Source: a virus. Taken from it: a stretch of DNA of 64,000 nucleotides. Shown here one piece after another: positions 2,762 through 63,352 of the stretch. Positions within the stretch are counted from its first letter, which is position 1. Each line of letters starts with the position of its first letter. The notes under the pieces were generated by a model. The model had not been told where the DNA came from and ran no database searches. It saw nothing but the letters and a program-made list of their open reading frames with translations. The position numbers were made by a program, and so were the translations under genes. Where the stretch lies: positions 32,001 to 96,000 of the IMG/VR virus record IMGVR_UViG_3300019776_000564, one strand, 5' to 3'.

Positions 2762-2979
2762 TGAGAATCATTCTCAGGGGCGCTGCGAATCGTTCTCATT
2801 CGCGACCGCGGTTGAGACGCATTCTCAAATGCAAATGATTCTCATTCTCAAATACGAATGATTCTCATTTCACTCAAATGAGACGCATTCTCAAATGCAA
2901 ATGATTCTCATTTTCAGACAATAATCGTTCTCATTCTCAAACAAGAATTTATCTAATTCTCAAGTGCGAATGATTCTCA
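2762..2979. repeat. array of ~9 Fur-box-like 7-1-7 palindromes (TGAGAATnATTCTCA type)
   Basis: perfect TGAGAATcATTCTCA at 2762-2776; variants at 2784, 2813, 2830, 2853, 2879, 2896, 2919, 2965; 34-bp exact direct repeat 2813-2846 = 2879-2912. Confidence 0.85.
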
Positions 2980-3098
2980 ACACCTGTCTTCTCTTATTAC
3001 ATGCGCACGCGCGCAAGTAGCACAGCAAATTAGAATGAGCAAGAATTTTTTAGTTATATGCTTATGCTTTTCCGATCTATCAAATATCTAATAATCGC

Positions 3099-3126
3099 TT
3101 GCATCAAAATCTAGTTAGTCTAATAT
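3099..3126 (+). promoter_or_regulatory. sigma70-like promoter for the island operon
   Basis: TTGCAT-16 nt-TAATAT with an AT-rich upstream region. Confidence 0.5.
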
Positions 3127-3206
3127 TCAACTCAAGCGACGCAACAACGCGACGCTAACGAAGTAGCTCAATAACGAAGCTACTCACTTCTAGAGAGAGA
3201 TATAAA

Positions 3207-3761
3207 ATGACTCAAGTTAACGCTAAAGCTGTAGCTAACAAAGAAGCTTTTGAAGTTGTTGCAGCTGAGTTTGCTGCAACTAAAGAGCAAGCAAGTGCGC
3301 AAGCTGCTCAAGCTCAAAACGACGAAGAGCGTAAAGCGTTTGCAGATGCTGCTAAAACAGCGTCTACACACGAACGCTACACTAACGCACTTGCTAACAT
3401 GAGCGAAAAAGCGCTCGCAAGTTTGAACAAGTACAAAATCAACGCTACTGAACTTGCTAAACAATCGCGTGAACTGAAAAAGCGCTCTATTGCGATCATC
3501 GAAGCGATTGTAACTAAGCAACGCGTTAACGATCGCGCACTTGACGCAGTGTTACAGTACATCGTCGCTAAAGACGCTGCGAGCATGACGCTTGAGCAAG
3601 TGCGCACGCAAATGCAGCACGAAACTACTACGCAAGCGCAATACTTCAAAACTTGCGCAATCTTTTTCAACTTCGCGCAGTACTCTAAGTCTGAAAAGAC
3701 TATCAACTTCAACAAAGACGCTACTGTCTTGAAAGAGTTGATCGCGATCTACACTGTGTAA
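3207..3761 (+). CDS. Ala/Lys-rich helical protein lacking Gly/Pro/Trp (island gene 1)
   Basis: 184 aa, codon usage typical of highly expressed genes (GCT, AAC, CGT), RBS AGAGAGAGA. Confidence 0.85.
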   Translation: MTQVNAKAVANKEAFEVVAAEFAATKEQASAQAAQAQNDEERKAFADAAKTASTHERYTNALANMSEKALASLNKYKINATELAKQSRELKKRSIAIIEAIVTKQRVNDRALDAVLQYIVAKDAASMTLEQVRTQMQHETTTQAQYFKTCAIFFNFAQYSKSEKTINFNKDATVLKELIAIYTV

Positions 3762-3771
3762 CAGTGTGCGC

Positions 3772-3808
3772 AAGCGCTCTAGAACGTCTCTAGAGCGCTT
3801 TTCTTTTC
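3772..3808 (+). terminator. intrinsic terminator built without GG/CC
   Basis: AAGCGCTCTAGA-acgtc-TCTAGAGCGCTT followed by TTCTTTTC. Confidence 0.75.
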
Positions 3809-3829
3809 TAGTCTGAGTGAGACAACGCA

Positions 3830-4129
3830 ATGAACAAGCAAATCGCTGTAAACGCGCTACAGAGCGCTACAGAGCAAGCGCTGCTAGACGTGCAAGCTAG
3901 CGTGCTGCATATGCTACAGAATCGTAGTGCTGAGACGTACTATCAGCACGCACAAGCGCTGCGACATACGCTCACATACGCTAGCACTGAGTATGTGTTT
4001 AACGCTGTTAAACGACACGTGCAGCGCACTACAGCGCAACGTGTGAGCATGAAGCAAAGTATCAGTGTATTGCGCAGTGATATACGCGCTGCTATGCGTG
4101 CAGATAAGTATTCATTGTTTGCACACTAA
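3830..4129 (+). CDS. hypothetical protein lacking Gly/Pro/Trp (island gene 2)
   Basis: 99 aa ORF, GAGTGAG upstream. Confidence 0.7.
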   Translation: MNKQIAVNALQSATEQALLDVQASVLHMLQNRSAETYYQHAQALRHTLTYASTEYVFNAVKRHVQRTTAQRVSMKQSISVLRSDIRAAMRADKYSLFAH

Positions 4130-4164
4130 GTTATTTAAACTTTTCTCTTCTTACTTGTGAGTAT

Positions 4165-4497
4165 ATGCAAATGACTAAAGTATCGTTCTCTAACGTTATC
4201 GCTGACGCTTTCAGCGCTGAACAAATGCAAGATATCAGCAAAGCAGACTATAACAATCTGCTTTCTATTCTCGACATAAAGTCAAAGTATATCGAGTTTG
4301 TTAATAACGCTGAGTGCATGCACTTGCTTATTGTGCATGATGCGCGCAATAACAAGTATGAAATTGTTAGTGTGTATATCAGCGCTAACTTAGAGCATTA
4401 TCAAGTAACGTTAGTTGATACTTGCGATACACTGTCAGACGCATATAACGAACTGCATAATTCGTTGCAACTTCTACTCAGTGAGTGCGACAACTAA
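4165..4497 (+). CDS. acidic hypothetical protein lacking Gly/Pro/Trp (island gene 3)
   Basis: 110 aa ORF, GTGAG upstream. Confidence 0.7.
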   Translation: MQMTKVSFSNVIADAFSAEQMQDISKADYNNLLSILDIKSKYIEFVNNAECMHLLIVHDARNNKYEIVSVYISANLEHYQVTLVDTCDTLSDAYNELHNSLQLLLSECDN

Positions 4498-4505
4498 GTT
4501 AGTTG

Positions 4506-4555
4506 CTTACTTACACTTTTCTAAGTTGTCAAAGTCTTAGAAAAGTGTAAGTAAG
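4506..4555. repeat. perfect 20-bp inverted repeat
   Basis: CTTACTTACACTTTTCTAAG-10 nt-CTTAGAAAAGTGTAAGTAAG. Confidence 0.9.
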
Positions 4556-4599
4556 ACGTGACCCTACTCCCTTCTAAATCCCGGATACCTGCACTCTAA

Positions 4600-4684
4600 C
4601 CTTACACAGGTAGGTAGGAAGTTCCCACACGCTCTCCTTACACAGGTAGGAACAGGTTCACAATACAATCCCTTACACAGGTAG
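4600..4684. repeat. three phased 14-bp direct repeats CCTTACACAGGTAG
   Basis: copies start at 4600, 4636 and 4671 (period 36/35 bp). Confidence 0.9.
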
Positions 4685-4779
4685 CCTTACGCTCCCAACG
4701 TCTTACGCACATACTTGATAAACAGTCAGCGCTGATAAGCAGCTAAGCACTTAACCACTAAACACTTAAGGAGTTACCC

Positions 4780-5466
4780 ATGACAGCAAAGTCCAATAAT
4801 CCAAACCAACCCGGTTCCGTGCCGCCTGCGGCGGACGCAACCTGGCTATCCAAGCTGTTTGACAGAATCAACAAGAGGCTTAACCTTTCTTCGTGCCCAG
4901 AAGACCTTGCTGCTTTCTTTGAGCAAATTAACCAAGAAGCGGAAGACCTTAAAATCCAGGAGTTCAATGAGATTTACCTGCACAAGTACGTGATGTTTAT
5001 CGCGCCTATTAAAAATCAGCGGTTAACCGGGATTGTTAACAAGATTGAGCACGCTGAAAGCGGTGTGACGTTCACTATTAACCGTGTTGTGTTGATCGCT
5101 GGTGAGCTTCTGGAAACAAACGAGGTGTTTGACAACGTACCTCTGACGGCAAGCTTTGCCGTATTCAGGAACAAAGAAAGCTGCATCAACGACATCAAAG
5201 AGACGAACAGAGCCAGAGCCAAAGCGAAAGCTGTTAGGCAAGAGGTTGAAGAGCGTCTTAAAAACGACCAAGAAATAGAGCGCAGGAAAGAAATCAAAAA
5301 GATCGCAGAGCAGATCTTGGTACAGCGTGCAGCTAACGGTGAGATTTGGGCAGTGTTTGACAATGCAGACGTTAAGGCAGTGTTTAGACAGGCAGAGAGT
5401 ATTGTTGATGGTCTTAAGAGCCTAGACCCAAGTAAACAAGACAGCGAAAACACCGACACCCGGTGA
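4780..5466 (+). CDS. hypothetical protein
   Basis: 228 aa, AAGGAG RBS, terminator at 5491-5520. Confidence 0.8.
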   Translation: MTAKSNNPNQPGSVPPAADATWLSKLFDRINKRLNLSSCPEDLAAFFEQINQEAEDLKIQEFNEIYLHKYVMFIAPIKNQRLTGIVNKIEHAESGVTFTINRVVLIAGELLETNEVFDNVPLTASFAVFRNKESCINDIKETNRARAKAKAVRQEVEERLKNDQEIERRKEIKKIAEQILVQRAANGEIWAVFDNADVKAVFRQAESIVDGLKSLDPSKQDSENTDTR

Positions 5467-9043: not shown

Positions 9044-9304
9044 TCAGCCAATCTTCCGAAGATTAATACCTTCAGTATTCAGATGGTTAACGAGATCTTT
9101 GTAGCCACCGACGTGATACTGCCCGGAAGCATTGTCCATGATGATCTGGGGTAGTGTTCTTACCGGGCCGACCTTTTCTACAAGCTCTTGAGGCGTGAAC
9201 TGAGTAACCTCACTGAACTCCAACCCCTTCCGAGTCAGCAAGTCCTTTGCGTTCTTGCAGTCTGGGCAATTTGGCATGGTGTAAACGATATACAGAGCGG
9301 TCAT
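9044..9304 (-). CDS. glutaredoxin
   Basis: CPDC active site, TLPQI cis-Pro motif, HVGGY. Confidence 0.9.
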   Translation of the reverse strand: MTALYIVYTMPNCPDCKNAKDLLTRKGLEFSEVTQFTPQELVEKVGPVRTLPQIIMDNASGQYHVGGYKDLVNHLNTEGINLRKIG

Positions 9305-9382
9305 GGTGAAGTCCTATTGGTTTGAGCTAAATGTGGGTCTATGATAATGCTCGCACGATATAAAATCGACGGGGAAGTAGAT

Positions 9383-29935: not shown

Positions 29936-32900
29936 ATGAGTTTGGGCCAACTGGTTCTGGATCTGAAGCTCAACGGCAACGAATTTACCGTGGGGCTGAA
30001 ATCAGCTTCAGGTCAATTGGGTCAATTCGTTGCTGGCGCTCAGCGCGCTAACAGTGTCATCAAGAGCGCTGAGCGCTCCACTTATTCGTGGGGCAATGTC
30101 ATTAGAGATACGGTTATTGGGCTTGCTCTTGCCCGTGACGCTGTACGTACTCTAAGCGCAGTTACATTTGGTTGGCAGAAGGCTATCGTCGGTGTAAACA
30201 GCGATATGGAGAGATCCATCGCTCTGATGAAAAACTTCTCGAAAGAGACCAACTCCGTAAAAGCTACATCCGAAGCCGTCTCTGACGTTAACAAGCTTCT
30301 GGAAAGAGCATCAACATCCCCATTCTCTCTCACCGCTATTACCGACGCCTTTGTTAAGCTGCGCGTTGGTGGCGTTGAGCCTGTATTTAAGTCGATGGAC
30401 ACCCTTGTGGACTCAGTGTCTGCATTTGGTGGTAGCGGCGAAAACCTTAAGCGTGCCGGCGTTGCTATTCAGCAGATGGCAGGTAAGGGCGTTGTCTCTA
30501 TGGAAGAGCTTCGTCAGCAACTTGGTGAAGCTGTCCCGACTGCAATTAACGCAATGGCTGCCGGCCTTGGTACAACTTACTCGAAACTGGTTAAAGAGAT
30601 TAGCCAGGGTAAAGTTCTATCTAAGCCAGCGATCATCGCAATGATGCAACAGATGGAACTCCAATTTAAGGGTTCCGCCGCAAACATGATGAACACATGG
30701 GGCGGCGCTGTTGCTCAGTTTGAAACTGATGCCAAGAAACTAGCCGTAGCATTCGGTGGTCTTGGTAAAGATGGCTACGAAGAAGGCGGCTATCTAAAGA
30801 CGATCACGAAGGAACTCAAAGGCCTTAACGAGGTTCTTTCAGACCCGGAGATCATCAACAGCGCCAGAGATATCGGTAAGGCTGTTGGTGAGATGATCAC
30901 AAGCCTTGCAAACGGTACAAAATGGGTTATTGCTCACCGTGAGGCGATCTATGAGTGGGGTAAGGCTCTTCTTTATCTCTGGGCTGCGTACAAAGGCGCA
31001 TCGATTGTAAGTGGGGTTCTGAAGACTGCTGGCGCAGCAACAGAAACTCTTGCAATGAAACTCATTCAGATGAGGATGCAAGGTCAGAGCGTAACGACCG
31101 CGATGGGCGGTATGGTTAGCTCTATGAGTGGCTGGAACAGCACAGCGGCTATTGCAGCGGGTGGCGCTACAAGAATCGCAACCGGGTCTAACGCTGCCGG
31201 CGTAGCCGTTCGGGCGCTTGGTGGCGCCATTGGCATACTCGCAGGCCCAATCGGTCTTGCCGCAACGCTCGCTGTCAGCCTTGGTATGGCTTACTTTGAG
31301 TCAAAAAGAGGCGCGGATGCAGCTAGAGATGCCGTTCTGGGCCTCAATGGCGCTCTGACTGATTACAACCAGCTTTCGATTCTTGGTCAGGCCAGAAACG
31401 ATAAGAGAAAGTCTTATGAAGAGCTGTACGGCCCGGAAGCTGAAAAGAACCTTGCTTACCAAAGTAAGGAATACGTAGAGCAGTACAAGAAGGAAAAAGC
31501 GGCAGCGAAAGCTGACCTTGATAAGACCGATAGCGATCTGCTTAAGGCTCGCCTGAACGTTGCTCGGACTTATGCAAATACTGAGGCTCAAGGTGTTATC
31601 TCGGCAAACTCTGCCGCAATCGCTGAGATCTCCAAGTCATACAAAATTGACTCTGCTGCCATCTATGAGCAGTTCGAGGAAGAGGCCAAGAAGAGCGGCA
31701 AGGCTTTCGACGAGGCCGGTTACAAGAATGCCTTGAAGCAACGAGGCAGCATCAAGTACCAAGAAGAGATTGATACCTACGTAGAGGCAAGAAACCAAGC
31801 TATCGAGGCTAAAAACAAGCTTGTAGCGGAGAACACGGATTCAAAAGGAAGGCTGATTGTTGATGATGAAAAACTCAAGCAGCTTGAAACCGCAAAGACT
31901 CTGATCTCCAGCTTCGATGAGAAAATCGCAGATACCAAACTCTCAATGCAGGAGCTTGGTAAATATGATCTCGCCTCTACTCTTGTAAATGGCCCAGGCG
32001 GTAAGCCAGCAAAAGCTCAGTTCGATGCAATGACCATGTACGTAGATGGTCTGAGAAAGTCTGTAGCTGGTCTTGGCGCAAAGATTGAGGAAGAGAACCC
32101 CTACCTTGCTCAGCTTGATGCAACCGTTGAAAGTCTTGGCGGCAAGAAGCTTCCAAACTTCGATGCAGTTTACGCATCCGGCGTTAAGCTTGCGGAACAG
32201 CGTTGGGCGCAAGAGAAGGCTCAAAAGGCTCTTACCTCTGCCAACAATGAATATAAGGATTCGATGGAGCGAATCGGACAGATTCAGAGGCTTATGAGCG
32301 GTAAGCTCAACAAGGCTGAAAATCTCAATCCATGGGAAAAGGCTTCTGCTGACGCAATCAGGTACGAAGACGAGCTTAATGATCTCGTCAAGAAGATGGA
32401 TGACGCAAGAAAGCAGGCTGAATCCGCTGCTGGTAGCATGGGTCAAGGTCAGCTTGAAAAGCTTGCTGAGAAGGCAAGACTTGCTGAGAAGGCTGTAGAT
32501 GACACCAGAGAAACACTTGAGAAGCTAAAGGTCACTGATACAGGCAAGGCTATGAAAAGCACTGCCGACGCCATCAATGACGCTCTTCTCAGTACCTCTG
32601 ATAGAGCAAAGGCCGAGTACGACCGCCAAACTGAGTGGGCTGATCAGTTTTACGCAAACCATAAAGATCAGTTGGAAAAAGACTCTGAGGCGTATGCTCA
32701 GTATTCCGAGTTTAGAAGGTCGCTTGACGCTCAGTATGCTCGGGAAAGCGAATCCGGGTTAGACCAATGGATTCGTCAAAACAGAGATGCAACCGAGCAG
32801 TATAAGAGCCTTTGGGGCTCTGCAATGAACAAGTTCACCGACACTCTTACCGATGCTCTGGTTGAGGGTAAGATGCAGTTTGGTGATTTTGTTAAGTACG

Positions 32901-59959: not shown

Positions 59960-62900
59960 ATGAAGAACCTATTGGGTGCAAAAACCCACTTCTCGCTTGG
60001 CGAATCAATCTACGACCCGGAAGCTCTAGTCAAAAAGGCAGAGCTTGCCGGGTATGAAGGCATTGTGGCGACGGATGTCGATTCAATCGACTCGATGCCT
60101 ACTCTGTCCGGCAAGTCAAAAGGCTTGAAAGTGGGTCTTGGTGTACAGATCGCTGTAGTAGAAGACCTAAAATGGGAAGCTGCAAAGCGCGGTGAACCAA
60201 AACGAAAGCCCAACCCGGTTTTCGTTACGACCTTGTTCGTCAGAAACGAAGAAGGCTTTAAGGACATCTGCGAGCTTTTGACCCTCGCACAGTCAGAGTC
60301 CAACTACTGCTCCAAGCCTGCTCGTATGCAAATCGATATGCCGCAGCTTATCGATTTCGTATCTCGGGGCAACCTGACTATGACTCTGGGAAGCTCTTAC
60401 AGCGCGCTACAGCTTAGAAAGCGCGAAGAGATCATAGACGCACTGTGCGATCATTTGGACGTCTCACAAGTCGTCTCAGAAGTCGTACCAGTTAACTCTA
60501 TGTTCTATGACGCGCATAATGCGCAGATGCTGAAGCTGAAGCTGGATCGGGGCATCGAAGGCATCATTACTCGCCCAACTCTCTATCAAAAAGGGGAGGC
60601 GAAGTTCCGAAACACAATGAACTCCATTCTCTCCCACGACCGCGTTGATAGCGTGTTCAGACGAGAGCCTGCTGAGGATCTTCATGTTCTTGAATGCGCC
60701 GAGTTGGACTCTGAAGTAGAGCGCCTTTACGATCGTCTGGTTGCAGCCGGGTCAGATCCATTCAAGACTCAAGGCTTCTTGGAGAAAGCGTGTGAGAAGA
60801 CGGAGAAGTATTTCACTGACCATCCTTATCAGTGGAAGAAGATGGCTCCTTCTCTTCCCGTAATGTCGTCTAACCCGCGACTGGACATCATTGCGCTGTG
60901 CAAGAAAGGTTGGCGTGAGCGTCTCGGCAAAGAAGTATTTGGGTACAAGCCAGATGCTTCGATTCTTCCTGTCTATCAGGAGAGGCTTAAATACGAGCTT
61001 AGCGTTCTAAACAAGATGGGCTTTGAACCGTACTTTCAACTGGTTCACTTTATTGTGGATTGGTCTAAGAAGAACAAGATCATGGTTGGCCCGGGTCGTG
61101 GATCTGTTGGCGGTTCGTTGATCGCTTTTCTTATGGGTATCACCGACGTAGACCCGGTGAGATTCAACCTCATCTTTGAGCGATTCATTAACCCTGAGCG
61201 TATCGACTTGCCAGATATCGACCTCGACTTTATGTCGAGCCGCCGTCAGGACATTGTTGATCACTTGGTTAGCGCCTTCAGTGAAGACTGCGTTGTCCAA
61301 ATCGCCAACTACAACACCATCGCTGGTGCCGGCGCTATTCAAGCGGTGAGCAAAGCCTATGGCCTTCATGAGAGCCAGTACGAGTGCTCCAAGCTCGTAC
61401 CTAAGGAGTCTGGTGTTCCAGTTCCTCTTGAGAAGGCCGTTGCGTATGTACCCGAGCTTGAGAAGCTTGCTCTTAACCATCCTGAGGTTTGGGCAGCATC
61501 TGTAGGTCTTCAGGGCACGTTCAAGAACTTCGCGAAGCACGCGGCAGGTGTAGTGGTTGCTGGTTGCGACATCGTTGAACGTGGCGTTGTTAACCGACGT
61601 AGCGGTGTTGGTATCGTTAACTGGGACAAGCGTGTCGTCGAAGACTTTGGTCTGATCAAGCTCGACGTACTCGGCCTGAGTAACTTGGACATTCTCAGAT
61701 TGTGTCAAGATTACATTCGCGAGAGCGCCGGCATTGAGGTCGATTTCACATCGCTACCTCTTGATGACAAGAGGGTCTTGCAGTCATTCGCTGAGGGTAA
61801 AACCTACGGTGTATTCCAGTTTGAATCCGGCGGTATGCGTAAGCTACTAAAGGATCTTGGTTCTGGCGGCAACCTGACGTTCGATGACTGCGTTGCAGCA
61901 ACAGCTTTGTTCCGACCCGGCCCTATCCAAGCTGGTCTGATGGATATGTATGTCGCGATCAAGAAGGAGTTTCAAGAACCCGAGTACCTTCACCCGAACA
62001 TGAAAGCCGCTCTTGAGCCAACGATGTCAGTAATGGTCTATCAGGAGCAGGTAATGCAGATCTCGCGTGACCTTGCTGGGTATACATTCCCTGAGGCAGA
62101 CGGTCTTCGTAAGATCATGGGCAAGAAAGACCCTGTGAAAATGGCCGAGCAGCGAGACAAGTTCGTTGATGGCTGTATTGCAACGTCAGGTCTTGATCAT
62201 GGTACGGCGACGTTCATCTTTGAGCAGATCGAAAAGTTCGCTGGTTACGGCTTCAACAAGTCCCATTCTGTGGCGTATACCCTGATCTCGTATATGACCA
62301 TGTGGGTCAAGGTCTACTATCCAGAAGCGTTCTATGCAGCCTGCTTGTCGATCTTGGACGAACAGAAACTCGCCGGTCTCGCCAAAGATGCTCAGGCTAA
62401 CGATATCTACATCGTACCTCCTGATATCAACCACAGTTCCGGTCGATATGAAGTTGGCTTTGATGCTTCAAGAGGTCAAAAGATTCTGTATGCCCCATTC
62501 CAGTCAATCAAAGGCATGAGCGACAAGTCGGCATCCGCAATCGTAGAGGCTCGTAAGAAGCTAGGTAGGCCGTTCAAGAACAAAGCTGAGCTTATCCTTG
62601 AGGTAGACCGTCGCGCCTGTAATAAGCGTCACCAAGAGCTTCTGGATAAGGTTGGAGCGTTCAGTCTGATCGAACCCGGTCAGCTTCCTTCGAGACACCC
62701 GGATCGTCTTCGCGACCAAAAGGAACTGTTACCGGGTATCGTCGTTAGCAACGTAAAAGCCGAACGAGTGATCGAAATCACTGGCGCGGTAAGCGCTGAG
62801 CTTATTCAGATCGTTGAGGACTACCAGTCCAACAAGGGCTGTGACGGCTGTCCGTTTATTGGTCGAGCGCACCCACAGCCTGTCTTGGGTAAGAAACCTA

Positions 62901-63352
62901 AGGTGATGATCGTGTTGGACGGCCCTTCCTACAAAGAGGAAGAGAAGGGTCAGATGATGGTCGGCGACACTGGCAATTTCATCAAGACGGCTTTGCAGAA
63001 AGCTGGACTCAAAATGTCCGATGTCTACGTGACCAGTTACATCAAGGCTAGAAAGCTCAAAGAGGAAGAGATTGAGAACACCACTGCCAACGGTTGTGGC
63101 AAGTTCTTGCAGCGGGAAATTGAACTGCTGAAACCTCCGGTCATTGTAGCTTTGGGCAGCAAGTCTGTAAGACAGCTTGTGCCGGATATCAAAGGAGGCT
63201 GGGAAGAGAACTGCGGCAAGTCTTTCTTCGATCCTAAAACAGACTGCACCGTAGTTTCTGGCTTCAATCCGGCAATGATCTGCTTCGACGGAGCCAAGCA
63301 GTCACTTCTTGACGCGGTATTCAAGCAAGTAGCCGACATATTCGACTTATAA
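59960..63352 (+). CDS. dnaE: DNA polymerase III alpha subunit with C-terminal UDG-like domain
   Basis: PHP (THFS), GPGRGS, PDIDLD, KHAAGVV, GVFQFES, FNKSHS motifs. Confidence 0.93.
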   Translation: MKNLLGAKTHFSLGESIYDPEALVKKAELAGYEGIVATDVDSIDSMPTLSGKSKGLKVGLGVQIAVVEDLKWEAAKRGEPKRKPNPVFVTTLFVRNEEGFKDICELLTLAQSESNYCSKPARMQIDMPQLIDFVSRGNLTMTLGSSYSALQLRKREEIIDALCDHLDVSQVVSEVVPVNSMFYDAHNAQMLKLKLDRGIEGIITRPTLYQKGEAKFRNTMNSILSHDRVDSVFRREPAEDLHVLECAELDSEVERLYDRLVAAGSDPFKTQGFLEKACEKTEKYFTDHPYQWKKMAPSLPVMSSNPRLDIIALCKKGWRERLGKEVFGYKPDASILPVYQERLKYELSVLNKMGFEPYFQLVHFIVDWSKKNKIMVGPGRGSVGGSLIAFLMGITDVDPVRFNLIFERFINPERIDLPDIDLDFMSSRRQDIVDHLVSAFSEDCVVQIANYNTIAGAGAIQAVSKAYGLHESQYECSKLVPKESGVPVPLEKAVAYVPELEKLALNHPEVWAASVGLQGTFKNFAKHAAGVVVAGCDIVERGVVNRRSGVGIVNWDKRVVEDFGLIKLDVLGLSNLDILRLCQDYIRESAGIEVDFTSLPLDDKRVLQSFAEGKTYGVFQFESGGMRKLLKDLGSGGNLTFDDCVAATALFRPGPIQAGLMDMYVAIKKEFQEPEYLHPNMKAALEPTMSVMVYQEQVMQISRDLAGYTFPEADGLRKIMGKKDPVKMAEQRDKFVDGCIATSGLDHGTATFIFEQIEKFAGYGFNKSHSVAYTLISYMTMWVKVYYPEAFYAACLSILDEQKLAGLAKDAQANDIYIVPPDINHSSGRYEVGFDASRGQKILYAPFQSIKGMSDKSASAIVEARKKLGRPFKNKAELILEVDRRACNKRHQELLDKVGAFSLIEPGQLPSRHPDRLRDQKELLPGIVVSNVKAERVIEITGAVSAELIQIVEDYQSNKGCDGCPFIGRAHPQPVLGKKPKVMIVLDGPSYKEEEKGQMMVGDTGNFIKTALQKAGLKMSDVYVTSYIKARKLKEEEIENTTANGCGKFLQREIELLKPPVIVALGSKSVRQLVPDIKGGWEENCGKSFFDPKTDCTVVSGFNPAMICFDGAKQSLLDAVFKQVADIFDL

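Follow-up and report, generated by a model that had tools for sequence, protein, structure and literature searches.

Several described systems come close to parts of the arrangement reported here. The first-step-transfer DNA of phage T5 is a short block of early genes needed ahead of the remaining genome, and in Davison's work this block is reportedly without sites for certain restriction enzymes. In phage T4, an early operon encodes a DNA-binding protein of ~200 residues (MotA) and a partner of ~100 residues (AsiA), and the middle promoters have a good -10 box but, where a -35 box would stand, a special element upstream. Viruses also encode activities whose 2-3-nt specificity differs between lineages, namely chlorella virus M.CviPII/Nt.CviPII (CCD), Mom of phage Mu and 7-deazaguanine DpdA, and we know of no report of an unmodifiable early operon in any of these systems. 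Restriction-site avoidance and depletion of the protospacer-adjacent motif (PAM) of clustered regularly interspaced short palindromic repeat (CRISPR) systems are cases of selection against a short DNA word for which there is a reader. Such known motif avoidance in phages is a mild statistical depletion across whole genomes (PMC4246573, PMC12174588), as for the mild genome-wide depletion of CC in Pseudomonas aeruginosa phages (PMC12174588). Our full-text literature searches found genome-wide depletion of PAMs and restriction sites and nothing like an absolute, operon-sized exclusion of a dinucleotide. Here we describe such an exclusion, a 1490-nt island free of GG and CC in the IMG/VR virus record IMGVR_UViG_3300019776_000564, analyzed in a window of 64,000 nt (positions 32,001 to 96,000 of that record) to which coordinates refer unless stated otherwise.

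Direct counting on both strands reveals no GG or CC from 3073 to 4562. On the + strand, GG is missing over 2811-4582, and CC occurs within 2807-4561 at 2983 and 3072 only. The number of GG and CC expected is ~138 at the island's own composition (43% G+C) and ~113 at the genome odds ratio of 0.81. A first-pass annotation, made from the sequence alone, had described this gap with its two outlying CC and had put the expectation at well over 100, and the counts agree on each point. The dinucleotide counts that it had proposed for the whole genome and for related phages give the longest gap here and matching islands in relatives. In the genome (108,018 bases, assembled as a circle through an overlap of 90 bases), the island is the longest CC/GG gap, with runners-up of 173, 109 and 101 nt. 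Scanning all strand-symmetric words of 2-4 nt gave a log10 expected number of such gaps of -63.6 for CC/GG, which is the sole independent outlier, as all other top words include CC or GG. The left edge is fuzzy, with a nearly GG/CC-free zone at 2812-3072 that holds just the two CC, and the right edge is sharp, with CC back at 4562. General avoidance of palindromic restriction sites was rejected because the palindromes GCGC, TGCA, CTAG and TCTAGA are enriched in the island, in line with the first-pass annotation.

The exclusion extends to the encoded proteins. Three open reading frames (ORFs) lie on the + strand of the island, ORF1 (3207-3761, 184 residues), ORF2 (3830-4129, 99 residues) and ORF3 (4165-4497, 110 residues). 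As first claimed from the translations, they contain no Gly, Pro or Trp, where ~55 would be expected in 393 residues; the large proteins of the same phage contain 8.1% Gly, 4.4% Pro and 1.4% Trp. The codons GCC, ACC, TCC, CGG and AGG are likewise never used in the island ORFs. The three amino acids are missing because CC and GG are excluded from the DNA of the operon. Signals between the genes follow the same rule, as had also been noted: ORF2 is preceded by the ribosome-binding site GAGTGAG, and the intrinsic terminator after ORF1 (3772-3810, + strand) has a 12-pair stem and a T tract without GG or CC. Among 77 homologs of ORF1, which reach down to 44% identity, 64 are without Gly, Pro and Trp. 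A homolog in locus L022 has an ordinary composition (14 Gly, 6 Pro and 1 Trp), and the ORF1 protein family itself therefore does not require the odd one.

Comparison with relatives places the island in a superfamily of ~105-117-kb siphoviruses and phage-plasmids. TerL of the present genome is 95% identical to that of Pseudomonas syringae Nickievirus, 58% to that of Rhizobium phage-plasmids and 56% to that of SSU5-like phage-plasmids, and gene order is shared. The island occupies a fixed position on this backbone, always left of a block of helicase (- strand), ParB, ParB, ABC ATPase, terS and terL. Strict islands, with no GG or CC, span 1083-1137 nt in the Nickievirus phages nickie, hairong, ZY21 and Nican01, and 876-1292 nt in the metagenomic (IMG/VR) loci L007, L009, L010 and L011. 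A further metagenomic locus, L008, is near-strict, its 889 nt containing two exceptions. Only loci L020-L022 were gained from scans of metagenome and genome collections. A codon alignment of ten ORF1 genes contains at least 673 substitutions and a single change that creates GG or CC, whereas 24.5% of random point changes in the island would do so; there is therefore strong purifying selection on the DNA word itself. As an aside on the backbone, the G+C content of the present genome is ~50%, compared with 53-56% in Nickievirus, despite the 95% TerL identity, and the early regions share little, which points to a change of host accompanied by a rapid shift in composition.

The Rhizobium phages carry an island of different gene content. 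In RHph_N1_15 it is strict over 1150 nt, in DNA of 59% G+C, and in RHEph10 it is near-strict, with seven exceptions in 1.2 kb. The backbone position is the same, left of ParA (- strand), helicase (- strand), ParB, ParB, ABC ATPase, terS and terL, and the island's two genes sit on the opposite strand; their products too are without Gly, Pro and Trp. The 188-190-residue Rhizobium island protein shows no homology to ORF1 (hhalign probability <1%), and neither Pfam nor the Protein Data Bank (PDB) yielded a relative of the Rhizobium island proteins. We note that RHEph10 gp148, annotated on the + strand (L028 4105-4785), is probably mis-called, as the minus strand there holds a 188-residue ORF with a GAGAGA ribosome-binding site that is homologous to the annotated minus-strand gene of RHph_N1_15.

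In one lineage, the word itself is different. L012, L013 and L021 are distant relatives that bear ORF1 at 32% identity, with 34 CC/GG in 1.2 kb of island. In L013 and L021, all 34 of the residual CC on either strand occur as TCC, followed by A, T or G, and GCC/GGC, ACC/GGT and CCC/GGG are missing over 1.29-1.44 kb. The banned word in this lineage is VCC/GGB. Outside its island, L013 has VCC at 1.1-1.2 and TCC at 0.99 of expectation, and the odds ratio rho(CC) outside the present island is 0.81, compared with 0.84 in the island-free SSU5. Levels of CC/GG and VCC are ordinary outside the island, that is to say, the word matters only inside it. Depletion is weak in L014 and absent from L022. Two repeat families were seen in these loci: five copies of GGGAAAGGCTGGCGATC upstream of the VCC-banning island (L013 9700-10900, L021 5700-6900), and ten same-strand copies of GACCGTTCGTCGGAAAA in L022, a phage-like contig labelled as a Saccharibacteria metagenome-assembled genome, where they are probably another promoter/operator family.

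These observations define the level at which the rule operates. GG and CC are both missing, not only within genes but also across codon boundaries and in intergenic, promoter and upstream DNA. A rule at the level of mRNA, codons or tRNA therefore cannot explain the absence from both strands, from promoter DNA and from non-homologous Rhizobium genes on the opposite strand. Tolerance of GGA/TCC in L013 further excludes Shine-Dalgarno-like and CsrA explanations, and rules of the codon, tRNA, Shine-Dalgarno and CsrA kinds were rejected. The rule acts on DNA, not on RNA or codons, and it is tied to the locus rather than to any genes in particular. The first-pass claim that a DNA-level rule constrains protein sequence is thus strongly supported by both-strand symmetry, by the Rhizobium islands and by promoter DNA. 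That the unit behaves as an untouchable early module is strongly supported, and a reader of duplex DNA, whose 2-3-nt specificity drifts between lineages and to which the operon is invisible, is well supported. In contrast to PAM depletion, the exclusion is absolute, is confined to one unit of 0.9-1.5 kb with sharp edges and is not seen in the rest of the genome.

The right edge is marked by a conserved element, given as GTCAAAGTCTTAGAA or (GTC)AAAGTCTTAGA, which lies at 4528-4542 on the + strand (AAAGTCTTAGA at 4531-4541). The CC at 4562 falls 20 nt after it, and counts on the sequences show GG/CC returning 1-28 nt past the element across loci. The element is found at the same edge, on the + strand of the backbone, in all Nickie-like loci but L008, and also in L012, RHEph10 and RHph_N1_15. 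Beyond it, a flank rich in CC/GG (4563-4684, + strand) comprises a CCCTAC...CCCGGA block and three copies of CCTTACACAGGTAG at 4600, 4636 and 4671. The first CCTTACAC repeat lies exactly 72 nt past the edge element in eight loci, with two to four repeats per locus. Together these form a non-coding module of fixed spacing, GTCAAAGTCTTAGA followed by CCCTAY...CCGGA and 2-4 CCTTACAC repeats (4528-4684 in the window), and the GTCAAAGTCTTAGA module occupies the matching place in L001-L004, L007, L009-L012, L028 and L029. Its layout is reminiscent of cosQ-cosN-cosB of phage lambda. A TTGTCA inside the module could serve as a -35 box, and the idea that the island is the only unit that sigma-70 could drive was dropped on account of this conserved TTGTCA-N17 element. 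The flanks of nearly all loci are enriched in the banned word, being GG-rich over 300-600 nt upstream and CC-rich over the first 200 nt downstream. In most loci, a further 200-300 nt upstream of the strict zone hold just 0-4 occurrences of GG/CC.

This lineage also has an unusual promoter class. Nearly the entire genome is transcribed from one strand, and promoter-like sites of the form CC-N8-CC-N13-TAnnnT occur 15 times on the + strand and never on the - strand of the whole genome. Each of the 15 precedes 45-80 nt without GG/CC. The sites front gene blocks with hairpin leaders and ribosome-binding sites of the GAGAG type, with CC-N8-CC in place of the -35 box; examples lie at window positions 1259, 2229 and 4685 and at genome positions 1058-34229, 85518 and 100818, all on the + strand. 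The first such promoter right of the island (4685-4715, + strand) fronts a 228-residue gene at 4780-5466. The family extends to Nickievirus loci, where the consensus is CCgACAcatGCC...TTGCAAGCGTTTAcTAT; among the loci examined, SSU5, the L012-L014 group and the Rhizobium phages lack it. The islands of the Rhizobium phages have neither these promoters nor ORF1, and the island therefore does not depend on them. The promoter sequences point to a CC-reading step in promoter recognition in this lineage, for which ORF1 is the obvious candidate.

The predicted structure of ORF1 is consistent with DNA binding. The AlphaFold2 model (predicted local distance difference test score (pLDDT) 95.9) shows a long helical hairpin at the N terminus and a winged helix at the C terminus, and residues 105-184 superpose on TubR, AntR, MepR, MarR and ArsR/SmtB-type domains with Z scores of 7-8.7 and root-mean-square deviations of 2.2-2.5 A over alignments of 72-75 residues, although Foldseek E-values are weak. 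On the basis of the model, ORF1 is assigned as a winged-helix (MarR/ArsR/TubR-like) DNA-binding protein, with membership at the level of the fold only because no Pfam family matches; ORF1-3 gave no significant match in Pfam or PHROGs. Homologs of ORF2 are recognizable in the islands of all Nickie-like loci and share a C-terminal ...RSDIRA...(Y/F)AH motif (alignment of island ORFs of L001-L004, L007 and L010). ORF3 is missing from Nickievirus islands and has two small homologs (35% and 27% identity), likewise without Gly, Pro and Trp. ORF2 is the conserved partner of ORF1, and ORF3 is an add-on. For ORF2 and ORF3, a protein atlas search produced no usable lead, and a word-index search returned ORF2 alone. 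The ORF3 domain also appears ~12 times in P0080, a protein of 2675 residues. The pairing of ORF1 and ORF2 and the promoters without a -35 box recall MotA/AsiA and the middle promoters of T4, a likeness of sizes and architecture only, as ORF1 and ORF2 have no sequence or fold match to the T4 proteins and T4 has no dinucleotide-free operon.

The region left of ORF1 holds further elements. Immediately left of the island lies a Fur-box-like array of ~nine 22-23-mers in repeat families D1 and D2 (2755-2979), which matches 9246-9365, the inner end of the terminal repeat of the T5-like phage phiR2-01, at 74%; akin arrays occur in AAS21 and KEY. A putative ORF1 promoter, P1, consists of TTGCAT, a 16-nt spacer and TAATAT (3099-3126, + strand), and takes the form CGCTTGCA(T/C)-N16-TA(A/G)(T/A)AT in relatives. 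P1 agrees with the sigma-70 consensus at 7 of 12 positions, below the pass mark of the consensus scan. A strong sigma-70 promoter for ORF1 was therefore rejected in favor of a moderate match, and the proposed role of P1 draws on its conservation, not on its strength. Past ORF3, an inverted repeat of 20 bp that lacks a T tract (4506-4555, + strand) holds the edge element GTCAAAGTCTTAGAA in its loop and right arm, and an Rfam search with this hairpin gave a spurious miRNA-like match only.

Several explanations of the island have to be weighed, and those that place the rule in RNA or in the bare chemistry of DNA fare worst. A rule of RNA or translation, through an endoribonuclease, CsrA/Rsm at GGA, Shine-Dalgarno-like pausing or attack on Gly/Pro/Trp tRNAs, would accord with ribosome-binding sites of the GAGAG rather than the GGAGG type in the island and after CC-N8-CC promoters. 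It is largely refuted by the absence of GG/CC across codon boundaries and from intergenic, promoter and upstream DNA, by the same symmetric rule in a Rhizobium operon of opposite strand and by L013, which tolerates precisely GGA/TCC, the core of Shine-Dalgarno and CsrA sites; we consider it highly improbable. A physical or chemical property of the duplex, such as the A-form propensity of GG/CC steps in packaging and ejection, or oxidative damage at GG with the flanks as sinks, would make the rule strand-symmetric and independent of gene content, as it is, and would give meaning to the GG-rich upstream and CC-rich downstream flanks of nearly all loci. Yet the TCC-allowed, VCC-banned rule of L013/L021 resembles recognition by a protein and is unlike a property of the GG/CC step, and close backbone relatives do without the island, so that this explanation is improbable too. 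A third possibility is that ORF1, possibly with ORF2 and RNA polymerase, reads the CC-N8-CC promoters and the CCTTACAC repeats, and that its own operon is free of CC/GG so as never to be bound or mis-started. The modeled winged helix of ORF1, which is encoded beside three phased CC-containing repeats, would suit such a role, and the window and Nickie-like loci combine ORF1 with a strict island and CC-N8-CC promoters, none of the three being present in SSU5. However, Rhizobium phage-plasmids keep a strict island but have neither an ORF1 homolog nor CC-N8-CC promoters, the putative recognition helix of ORF1 is kept in L012, L014 and L022 despite a leaky, weak or missing island, and the loss of every CC/GG far exceeds what the removal of paired sites would need. 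We regard this explanation as doubtful.

Host defense provides an alternative that fits the word but is still unlikely. The island would enter the cell first, in the manner of T5 first-step-transfer DNA or the left end of T7, without the word that a host nuclease needs (the type I-F PAM, that of another CRISPR system, or the site of a frequent cutter), and its products would neutralize the defense. CC is the type I-F CRISPR PAM, and it matches the avoided word on both strands over 1490 nt. Island contents differ between lineages, as anti-defense genes do. The sharp, element-marked right edge with its block and three repeats, in the cos-like layout described above, and the fuzzy left edge adjoining an array that resembles the inner end of T5-like first-step-transfer DNA would both suit a leading end. 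A similar repeat array thus stands beside the early block in both cases, but here a word of 2-3 nt is avoided at the price of three amino acids, far beyond the avoidance of 6-bp sites, and the T5-like loci examined have no CC/GG-free island (longest gaps 94-133 nt at 39% GC). Nor were homologs of the T5 A1/A2 proteins found in the genome by tblastn (queries: ORFs of L005, L023 and L024, with A2 whole and A1 partial). The edge element does not coincide with the start or end of any public record or contig, and assemblies are circular. L007 and L010 do have ends near the island, which were considered as termini and set aside, one being a 127-bp assembly overlap and the other a fragment. Moreover, phages of Rhizobium and P. 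syringae, hosts that to our knowledge rarely carry type I-F systems, also maintain a strict island. The word is not depleted in the remainder of the genome (rho(CC) 0.81; VCC 1.1-1.2 in L013) and is enriched in the flanks, the word banned in one lineage is VCC, which is no known PAM, and the GG/CC-free zones next to promoters are left unexplained. The first-pass annotation had proposed a desert of type I-F or Cas9 PAMs as one of two readings; its word fits, but the Rhizobium and P. syringae islands, the lack of depletion outside, the enriched flanks and the VCC lineage make it the weaker of the two.

The explanation that we place first, tentatively, is that the island is a DNA-level safe zone around the regulatory operon that the phage needs first. 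The excluded unit is a complete transcription unit that includes its promoter DNA, whatever its genes or strand. The banned word would be recognized by a factor operating on duplex DNA. Such a factor would be passed down within the phage lineage and not come from one kind of host, and its likeliest form would be a mark, or some other activity, directed at the rest of the phage DNA or at host DNA. The island alone would escape this factor, such that unmodified host RNA polymerase could express it from incoming DNA, and its products would then open the next stage, represented by the at least 15 CC-N8-CC promoters. This reading is ranked first because the word is shared across hosts, the backbone position is fixed and the word is indifferent elsewhere in the genome. 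The banned word is common to phages of Pseudomonas, to those of Rhizobium and to the present ~50% G+C phage, and this favors a reader inherited with the backbone over a defense of one host kind. The second reading of the first-pass annotation, in which virion DNA modified at GG/CC obstructs host RNA polymerase and the operon bootstraps expression, fits vertical inheritance and a lineage-specific word better than the PAM desert does; it retains first rank at modest confidence, and its candidate enzymes did not hold up. These had been placed at 14.8-19 kb, but the products of the cluster at 14.8-19.3 kb are two ParB-like proteins, one ABC-type ATPase, one phrog_886 protein and some small proteins, and neither a GNAT nor a methylase or transglycosylase was detected among them. 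The 308-residue phrog_886 protein has no relative of solved structure, and its single-sequence AlphaFold model reaches a pLDDT of 33.

Several points weigh against the safe zone. No reader gene was identified: C5 and N4/N6 methylases, TGT/DpdA, GNAT and other base-modifying families are missing among ~75 ORFs, about half of the ORFs have no assigned function, and enzymes outside known families lie beyond the reach of such searches. Six-frame searches of the genome for PF00145, PF01555 and PF01702, which cover C5 methylases, N4/N6 methylases and TGT, returned nothing. SSU5 and Stenotrophomonas phage ANB28, which share the backbone, have no CC/GG island. The syntenic region of SSU5 (95,138-96,971; L026 45138-46971) does contain that genome's longest gaps for CAGG/CCTG (1833 nt), CGGC/GCCG (1494 nt) and CC/GG (154 nt), which are statistically marginal. 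If polymerase elongates through the marked word elsewhere, it is unclear why the entire unit is excluded, and the early timing of island expression is something that we infer. The difference between CC and VCC suggests a reader of the M.CviPII, Mom or DpdA kind, although no such enzyme was found in this genome. What the genome does encode includes DnaB, primase, ligase, RecA, a gp32-like protein, SbcCD-like nucleases, ribonucleotide reductase (RNR), ThyA, a DHFR-like protein, CobT/MoxR-like proteins and an HNH homing endonuclease. As a separate observation, the DnaE-type DNA polymerase III alpha at 59960-63352 carries a C-terminal domain of the uracil-DNA-glycosylase superfamily (residues 978-1082).

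We know of no phage strategy that gives up three amino acids in conserved proteins to bar a dinucleotide from a block of genes. This cost implies a strong, as yet unknown reader of duplex DNA in infected cells, which could take the form of a new type of mark on DNA, a nuclease that cuts frequently, a protein coating the DNA or a defense. Since the banned word differs between lineages (CC versus VCC), the gene responsible should co-vary with the word, and the island is a direct handle for finding the reader. The GG/CC-free coding DNA also provides a natural case of protein design under a reduced codon set, and an unusual class of promoters seems to have its master switch encoded in the island operon. 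For the superfamily as a whole, we see a little short of an even prospect that an undescribed activity reads CC (VCC in one lineage, possibly longer words elsewhere) on nearly all DNA of the infected cell, and that the phage boots from an operon in which that word does not occur.

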